36,240 nucleotides of DNA, taken from the IMG/VR virus record IMGVR_UViG_3300025894_000001. One strand, given 5' to 3'. Both the position numbers and the translations under genes were made by a program. This document shows, in pieces, positions 21,190 to 28,792 of the stretch (the first letter of the stretch is position 1; the number at the start of each line of letters is the position of its first letter). This stretch comes from a virus. A model generated the notes under the pieces. That model saw only the letters and a program-made list of their open reading frames with translations, ran no database searches and had not been told where the DNA came from.

Positions 21190-21363
21190 TCAAGCAGAAA
21201 GGTGCTTTTCTATAGCGGAAACTAGGTCTGTTTTGCGGTACAGCTTTTTCCCCATGAAAGGGAAAGTCGGGATGCCAAGCTTTCGGCGGTTCCTGATGAA
21301 GTGCGTGTAAGACATCCGGCAATACTCCGCAGCTTCTTTGCCGGTCAGGTAGTCATTACTCAT
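21190..21363 (-). CDS. Small HTH protein (excisionase/MerR-like)
   Basis: The 57-aa product contains YLTGKEAAEYCRMSYTHFIRN..IPTFPF. The start forms an ATGA overlap with the upstream gene. Confidence 0.5.
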   Translation of the reverse strand: MSNDYLTGKEAAEYCRMSYTHFIRNRRKLGIPTFPFMGKKLYRKTDLVSAIEKHLSA

Positions 21364-21629
21364 ACAACATAAACCGGCGTCACAAAGCGATTGGTTACCC
21401 GGCACTTGCGCTTCTGAGCTTCTTTAACCTTGCCGGATTTTTTCAATCCATTCACGCGACCTGACACTGCGTTGATTTCAAGACCGGTCAAACGGCTGAT
21501 CTCTTTAAGGGTCATGTCTTCAGTGAACATCGACTCGCCGAGACACGCGAGGATTTGATCTTCTTGTTTGAGCGTAACGCCGGCTTGTTTGATTTGGCGG
21601 TACACCACGGTGCTTGTATTTCTTGGCAT
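21360..21629 (-). CDS. Winged-helix DNA-binding protein
   Basis: An AGGAG RBS precedes the start. The product contains MTLKEISRLTGLEINAVSGRVNGLKKSGKV. Confidence 0.55.
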   Translation of the reverse strand: MPRNTSTVVYRQIKQAGVTLKQEDQILACLGESMFTEDMTLKEISRLTGLEINAVSGRVNGLKKSGKVKEAQKRKCRVTNRFVTPVYVV

Positions 21630-21639
21630 GGTTGATCTC

Positions 21640-22797
21640 CTAAAATGGGATGTCATCGTCAAAGGGAACGCCGTTGTCAGGCGGCTTGACCTCGAGGATC
21701 TCTGCGCCGGGCGTGAACGCTGCCATAGCTGTCAGGTAGTGCGTATCGTTGACGAGCTTGTCAGGGTCGAGCCACTGCAAGTCTTTTGAAGTAAAGTCGC
21801 GATCGCTCCAGTTGTTTAATTCGCAATTGGTAAAGGTTTGATCACCACCATCGAACTGATAGGTGATTCGGTTTCTTTCCTTGTCCATCTCTTTCACGGT
21901 CGCCCACGGAATCAGGTCAGGCTTGAACAAATGTTTCGGGCAACCTTTCTTCTGGTCCTTCATGCTGATCTTTTTGTTGTGGAACTCGCAGCGCCAAACA
22001 CCGAAGTCTTTTGTTTCCATTGTGTCGGGGTCGACCACTGGTGTTGAGTGCGCGCACGTTCGACAGTTTGCTTTGGCTGTTTTCTTCTCATGGCAAAGCT
22101 CGCTAAACTGACACCACTTACACTGAAAAAATTCGGGGTCTTCCGAAAGGCGGGGCGGCAGCTCGTTAGCTTTCAACAGCCTTGATGCTTTCTCGAACGC
22201 CTCGAGGAAATCTTTCTTGTTGAAGTTGGTGCGAACACTGATCATGTCTCGACCGCCGGCAGTGCAGCAGACTAGGTAATGCCGTTTGAGTTTGGTCAAT
22301 CCCATGTAGAGCTGCGCTTGGGTGTAATAAACCTTTGACCATTCTTTCAGTGCTTCTTTCTCGCCATGCTTCACGAGCAGCCGCTCGAGCTTACGCATCC
22401 GCGCATCGCCCACGCATTTGACCTCATAAACGTGCCAAGTCTTTGGCGCTTCCAGAAGTCCCAAAACAAGTCCGTCGAGGTGACCGCGCAGATGCCCGGA
22501 CAAACTCGCCACGCCCCATTGCCGTCCGTCTGGCCCGAAGGGGCGAAGGTCGACACCGGGTGTTGCTTTGAATCGTTTGTTAGTGAGATCCTCGGTTCGG
22601 TGTCCGTCATCAAACTTCATCAAGGTCGATGCCGGGTGAATCTCTTGGGACGCCCACCAAAATTGATATTGGAGCTGTCGCTCGCAACTAGATCCAAGAC
22701 CGCTACATTGAACATATCCACGCAGCTCGGTGTGATGATCTTTTTGCATCTGATCCATCACCGCCGCGATTGTCGGGTACTCGTTGACTAATGCCAT
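21640..22797 (-). CDS. Cas4/RecB-like PD-(D/E)XK exonuclease with an extra Cys/His-rich C-terminal extension and an SSB-type DDDIPF tail
   Basis: The nuclease motifs are HLDG..YEVK and QAQLY. An N-terminal Cys plus CKWCQFSELC gives C-x2-C-x5-C. A second cluster reads CRTC..C..H..C..H. The final residues FDDDIPF are encoded at 21643..21660. Confidence 0.75.
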   Translation of the reverse strand: MALVNEYPTIAAVMDQMQKDHHTELRGYVQCSGLGSSCERQLQYQFWWASQEIHPASTLMKFDDGHRTEDLTNKRFKATPGVDLRPFGPDGRQWGVASLSGHLRGHLDGLVLGLLEAPKTWHVYEVKCVGDARMRKLERLLVKHGEKEALKEWSKVYYTQAQLYMGLTKLKRHYLVCCTAGGRDMISVRTNFNKKDFLEAFEKASRLLKANELPPRLSEDPEFFQCKWCQFSELCHEKKTAKANCRTCAHSTPVVDPDTMETKDFGVWRCEFHNKKISMKDQKKGCPKHLFKPDLIPWATVKEMDKERNRITYQFDGGDQTFTNCELNNWSDRDFTSKDLQWLDPDKLVNDTHYLTAMAAFTPGAEILEVKPPDNGVPFDDDIPF

Positions 22798-23545: not shown

Positions 23546-23630
23546 GCCAAGCCTCGGCGATCCCGCCAACGATGGTGAGGATTCCGGCGAACCCAATGAA
23601 GTACACGAGCAAAATAAAAGCGTTGTCCAT
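23517..23630 (-). CDS. 37-aa single-pass membrane peptide (not in the ORF track)
   Basis: The GGGAGGCGTAATG junction forms a TAATG overlap with the DUF669 gene stop. The product is MDNAFILLVYFIGFAGILTIVGGIAEAWHDRKTKARR. Confidence 0.5.
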   Translation of the reverse strand: MDNAFILLVYFIGFAGILTIVGGIAEAWHDRKTKARR

Positions 23631-24091
23631 TACGCCTCCCACGGATATGGGCCTTGCGCCTGACCAGTTGCGGCGCCGTTCGCAGCTGCCGTTGGTGGTG
23701 GTGTCGACGCTCGCTCTTTCGCCATGTACCGTTTGACTTCCTTTCGGAGCTTCTTGGAGTCATCGCCGGTTTTGATCATCAGCTCATGCCCGATCAGATC
23801 GCCCGGCTCTTGAAGTCCTTGAAGGCCAACCGCGCGCGCAATGTCACTGGCGGTTCGCATCGCGATTTCTTGAACGGTCTCGCTTGGGTGCCGAAAGTTG
23901 AGGTTGCTCCAGATCTTGCGACCGGCGAGTGCGTCAGTCAGCGTAAACTCGACCGACACATATTCGTGTCCCGCTTGCGATGTTCGCCATTCCGAGCCTG
24001 AGATTTCGGCGGCGTAGGTGCCGTCAGGGATGTCGCCAAACTCGGTGTTTTCGTTTTCGGGCAGCAGTTCTGCCAATCCAATTGAACCCAT
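23630..24091 (-). CDS. DUF669-like protein (ssDNA-binding-like recombination accessory)
   Basis: The N-terminus reads GDIPDGTYAAEI..EYVSVEFTL. It lies next to a Sak4-type ATPase. The start at 24091 has an AGGA RBS. Confidence 0.6.
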   Translation of the reverse strand: MGSIGLAELLPENENTEFGDIPDGTYAAEISGSEWRTSQAGHEYVSVEFTLTDALAGRKIWSNLNFRHPSETVQEIAMRTASDIARAVGLQGLQEPGDLIGHELMIKTGDDSKKLRKEVKRYMAKERASTPPPTAAANGAATGQAQGPYPWEA

Positions 24092-24107: not shown

Positions 24108-24815
24108 TTAAGCCGCTTTCTTCGCGGCGGTTTTGGTGACATTGCCTTTCACTTTGTCGGCAATGTGTTTGAGGGAGGGCTTCTCGAATGGATCGAGCTT
24201 GCCGCTGCGGTCTTTCGCGAGCCACTGACCGTCTTGCGACGATTGCAGCCAACGCTCGTGGACGCCTTCCTGATTCGGTATCACTCGAAGCGCAAGAACC
24301 AGATCAACGTAGTAGGGGAGTTGTGCAGATACCTGACGCCCCGGTGCGCCGGGGGTGTAGAGCATGGCGCCGGTCGAGTCATCTTTTTCGCGGTCGAGCT
24401 TTGCCGTGAACACGACATTGGTGGGAAGGTCACGAAAGGCTTTGATCAGTGCGATGGATTTGTTCGCCATCTCACCGTATGCCTTGCGCGGGTCTTTTGT
24501 GCCTTTAAGCTCGCTCTCGAGAATCCGCTCGCAAATCTCACTGATCGAATCCAGAGCGATCCAGTTGAACTCGCGGGGGTTTGCTTTAAGGTGTGCAAAG
24601 ACTTCGGTGATGCCTTCGAGTGAGGACACCTCAATCACGCTGACGTTTGTTGCGTCTTTGATCGACAGCAGCCCGGCTTCAGCTGAGATCAGCAGGGTCG
24701 GTTCGCCGGTGGTGCAAGTCAAACAAGTCTTGCCGGCCCCGGGGTATCCGTAGACGGTGGCTTTGATGCCTCGGTCTTTTGCAACTTCGGCGGGTGTTTT
24801 AAAATCTATCGCCAT
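24108..24815 (-). CDS. Sak4-type (AAA_24) RecA-like ATPase
   Basis: The Walker A motif is YGYPGAGKT. Overall length and the later WIALDS motif fit phage Sak4-like proteins. Confidence 0.75.
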   Translation of the reverse strand: MAIDFKTPAEVAKDRGIKATVYGYPGAGKTCLTCTTGEPTLLISAEAGLLSIKDATNVSVIEVSSLEGITEVFAHLKANPREFNWIALDSISEICERILESELKGTKDPRKAYGEMANKSIALIKAFRDLPTNVVFTAKLDREKDDSTGAMLYTPGAPGRQVSAQLPYYVDLVLALRVIPNQEGVHERWLQSSQDGQWLAKDRSGKLDPFEKPSLKHIADKVKGNVTKTAAKKAA

Positions 24816-28017: not shown

Positions 28018-28467
28018 ATGCCGTTTGATTCGCGGTCAAAGGATGAGCGTGGGAATGTGTATCACTCGTTGGAAGTGATCGCGGAAGCCGAGAGCGAGGG
28101 GAAGGGGGCGCGGTGGATCTGCCGTTGTGACTGCGGTTCGTTGGTCACGGTTCGCGCAGCGCAGCTGCGGCGTGGTGATAGGAAGGATTGCGGATGCGGG
28201 TTGTCGAGTGTTAAGAAGTTTAAGAATGCACTCGTCGATATTGGCGATCCTCCCTGCGATAAAGGTTGTTTGTATCGGCAACGCTGTTTGGAAGATGAGA
28301 TGGCGTGTCAGCAGTTTAGATCGTGGTATGAGTGGGGCGGTGACATTCAGCCCTTTCCAGAAACCTTCAGACCAACCAAAGCCATGTTTAAAGCAATTTA
28401 TGAGCAAGATAAACAGCCGAACAAAAGGCGCAAACGGCGAACGAGAAGTGGCGAAGATCCTTCGTGA
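28018..28467 (+). CDS. Cys-rich (zinc-ribbon-like) hypothetical protein with a basic tail
   Basis: The product contains WICRCDCGSLVTV..DCGCG and a C-terminal KRRKRRTR. Confidence 0.55.
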   Translation: MPFDSRSKDERGNVYHSLEVIAEAESEGKGARWICRCDCGSLVTVRAAQLRRGDRKDCGCGLSSVKKFKNALVDIGDPPCDKGCLYRQRCLEDEMACQQFRSWYEWGGDIQPFPETFRPTKAMFKAIYEQDKQPNKRRKRRTRSGEDPS

Positions 28468-28792
28468 AGAGCTTGGGATAGATGTTCAACGCAACTGGGC
28501 CGAGCAAGCAGCTCGCGGTGGAGCTGACATATTGATACCGGGATGGGCGATTGAGGTCAAGAGATGTAAAAAGGCCATGATAAGCAACTGGTGGACTCAG
28601 GCGGCGATTCAGGCTCAGTACTCTAGTAGACACCCCTTGTTGGTCTATCGCCTTGACAGGGGCAAATGGAGGGCTGTGATGAGCATTCGGCATTTGATAC
28701 CTAATGGCTGTCACCATCAGCTTGAGATGAATTTTGACTGTTGGTGTCAGTTTTATCGCAACTGGAGAGTTGAGAATCGTGCTGAGTCTTGA
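28400..28792 (+). CDS. PD-(D/E)XK Holliday-junction-resolvase-like endonuclease
   Basis: The motif order is GEREV..GGADI..IEVK. The start at 28400 overlaps the upstream ORF by 68 nt. Confidence 0.6.
   Translation: MSKINSRTKGANGEREVAKILREELGIDVQRNWAEQAARGGADILIPGWAIEVKRCKKAMISNWWTQAAIQAQYSSRHPLLVYRLDRGKWRAVMSIRHLIPNGCHHQLEMNFDCWCQFYRNWRVENRAES

Follow-up and report, generated by a model that had tools for sequence, protein, structure and literature searches.

A conserved bacterial SSB-type tip as a probable docking tag on the Cas4-like nuclease of a phage Sak4/DUF669 recombination module

Single-stranded DNA-binding (SSB) proteins have tails, and these form the hub by which bacterial replication, repair, and recombination enzymes locate single-stranded DNA (ssDNA), and the sequence DDDIPF is the tip of that tail (PMC5872125). 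Here we describe a gene for a predicted Cas4-like PD-(D/E)XK exonuclease of 385 aa (21640..22797, minus strand, ATG start) in a 36,240-nt viral sequence, IMG/VR record IMGVR_UViG_3300025894_000001 (hereafter the window, meaning the whole stretch). The nuclease, which lies beside a Sak4-like annealase and a DUF669 SSB-like protein, bears the docking peptide of the SSB hub at its own C terminus: The phage enzyme would pose as SSB rather than bind it.

Several described systems share parts of this arrangement. The lambda Exo–Redβ and RecE–RecT pairs likewise consist of a 5′-end-resecting PD-(D/E)XK nuclease encoded beside an annealase, although their annealase is Rad52-like whereas the one here is the RecA-like Sak4. 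Redβ of lambda uses overlapping surfaces to bind the SSB tip and the exonuclease (Kd ~11 μM, lost with F177A; PMC6393309). Lambda Exo makes its contact with Redβ through a folded helix, whereas the nuclease here has an SSB-type tip. Phage HK620 encodes the same pair of an AAA_24 Sak4 and a DUF669 protein; the latter is a true SSB whose last six residues, NDYPPF, were likened by the authors to DDDIPF, and NDYPPF on the flexible SSB tail is required for Sak4 binding to SSB-coated ssDNA and for its stimulation (PMC5928155). The HK620 module is paired with Abc2, a RecBCD hijacker, rather than with a Cas4-like nuclease (PMC5928155). In HK620 the tip is thus on the SSB, whereas here the DUF669 protein ends in PYPWEA and it is the nuclease that carries the canonical acidic tip.

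The T7 helicase–primase gp4 is the closest precedent for an SSB-like tail on a non-SSB protein: It carries a tail like that of the phage SSB, gp2.5, and one modelling study overlaid the tail of gp2.5 onto a T7 polymerase-bound peptide that mimics the gp4 tail (PMC12339929). T7 copies its own SSB tail for its own polymerase, whereas the tip here is that of a bacterial SSB and stands on a nuclease. Measured against the C-terminal peptide of bacterial SSB itself (SSB-Ct, DDDIPF), the last seven residues, their C-terminal position, and the preceding disordered segment are alike; the differences are that the carrier is a nuclease rather than an OB-fold tetramer, that there is presumably one tip per monomer, and that the linker is ~25 residues long, the linker of SSB being much longer. 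The Cas4/RecB-family iron–sulfur (Fe-S) nucleases (SSO0001, PDB 4IC1; AddB; Dna2; Exo5; MGME1) have in common with the phage nuclease a PD-(D/E)XK core that contains D...ExK and QxxxY, along with a cluster pattern of one N-terminal and three C-terminal cysteines (C-x2-C-x5-C). Unlike Cas4, the phage nuclease is not CRISPR-associated, and it adds an invariant four-cysteine (4-Cys) domain, a C-terminal domain, and the SSB-type tail. Within the literature covered, which excluded subscription journals, we found no report of a nuclease or a Sak4/DUF669 module with a bacterial SSB tip.

The protein terminates in ...KPPDNGVPFDDDIPF. Its last seven residues, FDDDIPF (aa 379–385; 21643..21663, minus strand, as are the features below unless marked otherwise; seven codons before the stop), are the last seven of the Escherichia coli SSB-Ct peptide WMDFDDDIPF (PMC6393309). 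A first-pass annotation, made from the DNA letters and a list of open reading frames (ORFs), had read this ending as an SSB tip, and the C-terminal extension does end in ...GVPFDDDIPF; it had placed FDDDIPF at 21643–21660, which is correct for DDDIPF and one codon short of the full heptad. Within the nuclease subclade, 30 of 32 members keep the tip (41–76% identity), most commonly as [PL]-F-[DN]-D-x-[IL]-P-F, and D381 and P384 are conserved in at least 90% of them while the linker before the tip varies.

We searched genome and viral collections with the subclade profile, which gave 136 related loci, and defined a strict tip as a terminal [ILVM]P[FWY] preceded by at least two acidic residues. 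Such a tip is found on 31 of 126 nucleases versus 31 of 7020 other ORFs. Across 227 unique nucleases of the family, 72 carry a tip, in scattered lineages, and parsimony on an unweighted pair group (UPGMA) tree of these sequences yields at least 18 tip changes from a tipless root. Distant members end in EEEEIPF, EEEAIPF, EADLPF, ESEIPF, RVDDIPF, EEELPF, or IDNEIPF; their metagenome-assembled genome (MAG) labels include Synergistaceae, Lentisphaeria, Proteobacteria, and Methylobacillus, taxonomy labels of MAG phage contigs being unreliable. One such tip has been added after the ordinary family end (locus L031, ...FPGAKVM-EVRVDDIPF). Whatever the labelled host phylum, nuclease tips fit the near-universal bacterial consensus acidic-[IVL]-P-F. 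The first-pass annotation had allowed that homologues might reveal a non-conserved chance ending; because the tip is conserved in the subclade and was gained recurrently in distant lineages, across several labelled phyla, it is, as judged from sequence, a conserved functional motif and not such an ending. The nucleases of L084 and L001 have tandem tips, ..DDPIPFDDPIPF and ..DDGIPFDDEIPF, respectively, which may raise avidity. In Pseudoalteromonas phage H40/1 and Vibrio phage 1.005.O, no module protein listed bears a tip.

An overlapping downstream gene was considered as a source of the tail conservation and rejected. The next gene (21360..21629, 89 aa; phrog_1123, unknown function, E 1.4e-12) begins 11 nt past the nuclease stop (TAG, 21640–21642). 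Its longest ORF, from a TTG at 21662, would overlap the tail codons. A TAGGAG Shine–Dalgarno sequence overlaps the stop and is followed by the ATG at 21629, a start with which an independent gene call agrees; this arrangement makes the non-overlapping 89-aa gene the likelier one and suggests translational coupling. With the likely start past the stop, and with the tail kept in relatives that have different neighbours, the codons of the tail probably do not double as part of the next gene.

Modelling points to a four-part architecture: a nuclease core, a 4-Cys domain, a small C-terminal domain, and a flexible linker that ends in the tip. The AlphaFold2 model, built on 118 sequences, has a mean predicted local distance difference test (pLDDT) score of 93.3 and a predicted TM-score (pTM) of 0.89. 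The core (aa 1–240; 22078..22797) comprises D108, E125, K127, Q160xxxY164, C38, and the triad C226/C229/C235 (C226-KW-C229-QFSEL-C235, C-x2-C-x5-C; 22093–22122), with C38 and the triad being the Cas4-type cluster ligands. An alignment of 118 homologues shows D108, E125, K127, C226, C229, and C235 to be invariant and C38, Q160, and Y164 to be conserved in at least 90%; C31 is not conserved. The Cas4/AddB arrangement proposed at first pass—an early Cys (C38), D..EVK, QxxxY, and CKWCQFSELC—is therefore present in every element. PHROG 1990 ("Cas4-domain exonuclease") matches aa 8–298 on profile positions 16–290 of 290 (E 4.8e-63), which makes the nuclease by sequence a member of this phage Cas4-like exonuclease family, with its Fe-S content and exonuclease activity predicted.

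The core was placed by fold search only: A PDB sequence search with the nuclease returned nothing, and a Pfam search gave no nuclease family at E ≤ 1. Foldseek against the PDB ranked SSO0001 Cas4 (4ic1) best (E 7.9e-7) and lambda exonuclease second (E 1.6e-6), followed by LHK-Exo and then MGME1, type I-C Cas4, Exo5, Dna2, and AdnAB. In every PDB match the 4-Cys domain, the C-terminal domain, and the tail are unaligned, with a TM-score on query length of at most 0.35. A CRISPR Cas4 proper was rejected: TIGR00372 scores 16.9 bits against a cut-off of 65, with a weak match at aa 144–236; PADLOC Cas4 models reach at best E ~1e-3; and the gene is surrounded by those for Sak4, DUF669, a repressor, and an integrase, not by cas1/cas2 or a CRISPR array. 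The nuclease was also rejected as an SSB protein, its folded part being a nuclease and not an OB-fold ssDNA-binding domain. When the OB domain of E. coli SSB was used as a phmmer query, the 136 related loci gave no match; this search did not include the window.

The second 4-Cys domain (aa 241–298; 21904..22077) lies inside the PHROG 1990 match and contains C245-RT-C248, C270-EF-H273, and C286-PK-H289. C245, C248, C270, and C286 are invariant in the 118-sequence alignment, H289 is conserved in at least 90% across the family, and H273 is conserved in the subclade only. The second metal cluster proposed in the first-pass annotation, with CRTC, C..H, and C..H, thus keeps its motifs, but the family-conserved set is the four cysteines, and H273 drops out of it beyond the subclade. 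The site is constant across the family, not peculiar to this protein, and bears no relation to whether a tail is present. It is followed by a small β/α C-terminal domain (aa 299–360; 21718..21903; motifs NxIxY, F-N, and FTSKDLQ), modelled with strands at 299–305, 310–315, and 321–324 and helices at 337–359, with pLDDT falling from 98 to 87. Y313 is conserved in at least 90% family-wide, and within the subclade F322, N324, S337, D339, and L340 do not vary.

The linker (aa 361–378, FTPGAEILEVKPPDNGVP; 21664..21717) is predicted as coil, with pLDDT of ~73–65, and varies among homologues in length and sequence, being Lys-rich in many. Modelling of the C-terminal extension, which the first-pass annotation had proposed, gives residues 361–385 as coil with pLDDT dropping from 73 to 65 at the tip, as would be expected for a tethered short linear motif.

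The DUF669 protein had been described at first pass as lacking such a tail. An acidic IPF tip is indeed missing, yet the protein does have a tail of its own, which finishes with ...GPYPWEA (23630–23650), a variant of the PPW tip of its relatives, which in L001–L136 have a conserved near-C-terminal PPW[AK]xK, with PPW followed by basic residues (e.g., APPWAKK). By analogy, this PPW tip appears comparable to the NDYPPF tail required by HK620 Sak4. It is unlike the acidic IPF tip of the nuclease in both charge and position, which argues that the nuclease tip has a receptor other than a reader of the DUF669 tail.

Nearly all of the 31 tip-bearing non-nuclease ORFs in the related loci belong to one family, phrog_23504, of unknown function and with no Pfam match. 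These proteins of 63–76 aa occur at L003:10611-10811, L018:10917-11111, and L098:3464-3682 and in ~30 other related loci and are absent from the window; the gene mostly stands right behind that of an SF2 helicase which comes after the nuclease. Their N-terminal helix is followed by C-x2-C ... C ... (G)C-x2-W and then by an acidic end (such as EFDGVPF, EYDEIPF, or YFDDIPF). An hhalign comparison sets their cysteines against those of the second 4-Cys domain of the nuclease (probability 93.7%, E 1.9e-7), so the small protein looks, at the sequence level, like a free-standing nuclease 4-Cys domain plus tip.

Nuclease and small protein were never both tipped in one locus. Among loci with enough downstream DNA, both carried a tip in 0, the nuclease only in 26, the small protein only in 34, and neither in 20; the corresponding numbers after collapsing at 70% identity were 0, 19, 22, and 17 (Fisher P ~1e-5, phylogenetic dependence being ignored), and among helicase-containing clusters 0, 6, 20, and 12 (Fisher P 0.007, with the same proviso). 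Put differently, in helicase-containing clusters the small tip protein accompanies a tipped nuclease in 0/6 cases and is found in 20/32 otherwise. Where neither carrier is present, the tip can be on the SF2 helicase, Sak4, or DUF669. A tipped ORF is present in 41 of the 56 modules with full coverage to either side, and there is almost invariably just one.

Tip-bearing SF2 helicases (phrog_16) include those at L011:3350-5053 (...YEEVPF) and L036:9151-10818 (...DDTVPF), one with an SSB-type tip in L224, and a 577-aa protein in L196 that ends in FDDDIPF next to a PPW-tipped DUF669. The Sak4 of L016 ends in ...TTDDIPY, and acidic tips are found on DUF669 in L056 (...DEDTPF), L076 (...NDDVPW), and L089 (...TDDLPW). 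In L076, the nuclease comes from the tip-bearing subclade and has lost its tip; the DUF669 protein there is the tipped one. The first-pass annotation was right that an SSB-type tip stands on the nuclease. Its further idea, that the tip is a way to target the nuclease, fits less well with relatives in which the tip is on the small protein, the helicase, Sak4, or DUF669: With the tip a module-level feature, "tethering the resection/annealing machinery" is probably the better description.

Scanning viral contigs for ORFs with a terminal FDDDIPF yielded at least 120 cases, among them at least 56 canonical SSBs and members of other SSB families; the matches listed also include non-SSB proteins, among them phrog_16 SF2 helicases and several families whose function is unknown. 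Non-SSB phage proteins with this ending occur in L151, L154, L239, L156, L180, L184, and L232, the carriers being a 291-aa phrog_16442 protein, 73–75-aa helical phrog_1811 proteins, phrog_3284, phrog_862, and two proteins without a PHROG match.

We propose that the nuclease would be the end-resecting enzyme of a phage Sak4/DUF669 recombination module and that its tip, a conserved and portable short linear motif, would serve as a tether. The terminal Pro-Phe-COO− and the preceding acidic residues would enter a pocket like those in which SSB tails are read; we regard binding to such a pocket as likely, and the tip as probably a docking tag, unusual for a nuclease. The phage would cover ssDNA with its own DUF669 SSB, whose PPW tip is unlike that of the host, and the nuclease tip would for this reason most likely link the phage resection/annealing machinery to host SSB-docking proteins. 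Candidate partners are helicases and restart or replisome factors such as RecQ, PriA, and χ. We favour a host SSB-interactome protein over the phage Sak4 as the receptor, while putting the chance of a host partner a little below even.

Docking on the phage Sak4 itself has a fair precedent but seems unlikely to us. The nuclease would load Sak4 on the 3′ ssDNA that it generates, with the DUF669 tail taking over later, a Sak4 counterpart of the lambda Exo–Redβ hand-off. In HK620, Sak4 depends on the terminal hexapeptide (NDYPPF) of the DUF669 SSB (PMC5928155), and the SSB-Ct site on the Redβ C-terminal domain overlaps the Exo site in an F177-dependent manner (PMC6393309); moreover, Sak4 is present and well conserved in most related loci, which could also explain the uniform tip. 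Yet a single pocket for both the non-terminal PPW plus basic residues of DUF669 and the acidic terminal IPF of the nuclease is not obvious, and the tip that Sak4 itself carries in L016 would be odd in a receptor.

Considerably less probable is a role of the acidic tail as a DNA mimic that occupies the groove of the nuclease itself, or the OB fold of DUF669 or host SSB, and gates activity until ssDNA displaces it. E. coli SSB, T7 gp2.5, and T4 gp32 have tails for which gating of this sort has been suggested. The tip here is likewise acidic and on a flexible linker, the SSB tail is reported to bind its own DNA site weakly (cited in PMC5928155), and the gp2.5 tail sits in its DNA groove in models (PMC12339929). 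However, AlphaFold2 leaves the tail undocked on the nuclease, with pLDDT 65 at the tip; auto-inhibition in cis would leave the tips on the small protein, helicase, Sak4, and DUF669 unexplained; and the conserved Pro-Phe together with the upstream Phe indicates a specific pocket rather than charge alone. Short hydrophobic C-terminal peptides act as clamp motifs or degrons in other proteins, and the last residue of some variant tips here is L, M, or K instead of F, but a clamp-binding motif, a protease degron, or a lack of function is very improbable given that all seven residues are those of the SSB tip, and strong conservation with recurrent gain excludes a neutral ending. A sliding-clamp motif was ruled out on its residues: The tip has no initial Gln and nothing like QL[SD]LF, the clamp-motif consensus.

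Docking into an SSB-tail pocket of a host protein nevertheless has to be set against several observations that count against it. About one-third of the subclade tips have 1–3 extra residues (LNDDLPSWM, LDDPLPKWL, FDDPMPNLK), whereas the SSB-Ct pockets known so far depend on the carboxylate of the terminal Phe; the receptor of such non-Phe endings may therefore tolerate or require something else. In P0069, P0073, P0103, P0105, L116, and L119, an internal F[IV]DD[IL]PWD followed by ~12 mostly acidic residues replaces the terminal tip. Neither the non-Phe endings nor this internal form is accounted for by the classical SSB-Ct pocket. Tips of the -VPF/-IPF type are present in loci labelled Actinobacteria, whose SSBs end in PPF, and tips do not visibly track the SSB tips specific to each phylum; that the nuclease tip matches the SSB tip of the phage's own host is an assumption. 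As to the one-carrier pattern, its statistics ignore phylogenetic dependence and its loci came from the subclade profile. The hhalign comparison, furthermore, sets the terminal I-P of phrog_23504 against an internal L-I-P of the nuclease (296–297), so the ending of the small protein may in part be left over from that structure, and the case for exclusivity is the weaker for it.

The distribution of carriers would fit a more general scheme of tip grafting, which we put forward as a tentative and rather doubtful extension: Phages with a non-canonical SSB would place exactly one host-type tip, acidic-[IV]PF, on a subunit of their resection/annealing machinery and so restore the link to the host SSB interactome. 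The carrier would be the nuclease here and elsewhere the 65-aa 4-Cys adaptor (phrog_23504), an SF2 helicase, Sak4, or DUF669; in evolution the tip would hop between carriers and set which host factors, hence which hosts, can be used. Compatibility of an annealase with the host SSB tail already guides the choice of recombineering systems (ETfinder, PMC13490951; Redβ–SSB, PMC6393309). If the proposal holds, the tip would be a simple sequence mark for the partner and the host dependence of Sak4-type modules, a function would be found for the uncharacterised small family phrog_23504, and adding or swapping a seven-residue tip would suggest itself as a rule by which to design recombineering tools that are portable. 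The invariant second 4-Cys domain, common to the nuclease and phrog_23504, is likewise uncharacterised.

The nuclease gene is part of an early operon read leftward. The genes upstream of it on its strand encode a CI-like repressor, the Sak4-like annealase (24108..24815; a core-only RecA-type protein of the AAA_24 class; phrog_124, E 3.3e-52; PF13479, E 1.2e-24), and the 153-aa DUF669 SSB-like protein (23630..24091; PF05037, E 1e-8; phrog_6015/378, "single strand DNA binding protein"), whose start is that of an independent gene call, the longest ORF extending to 24142. Downstream are small genes and then an integrase. The order sak4–duf669–nuclease recurs in most related loci, with Sak4 found in most of them at 41–50% identity, and is also that of the cultured phages H40/1 and 1.005.O.

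The window is the genome of a temperate phage, and one that looks common and uncultured. The identical nuclease is found in 130 blocks of an assembly collection, on contigs of up to 72.6 kb that are in phage configuration and not integrated; one such contig that we examined is labelled marine metagenome. A megablast search against deposited phages gave no match to the window, and no tRNA or att clue to the host was detected in it. The portal is most like those of Pelagibacter podophages, with ~48% identity to the portal of EXVC032P. The GC content of the phage, 46–52%, is at odds with Pelagibacter as host. A 221-aa product encoded on the plus strand (28127–28792) is matched by PHROGs as a RusA-like resolvase (phrog_244, aa 92–189), a call that conflicts with the precomputed Pfam assignment, PF24608 PDDEXK_15, given in the identical contigs to a product that agrees with it in size and position; it could be a second phage nuclease.

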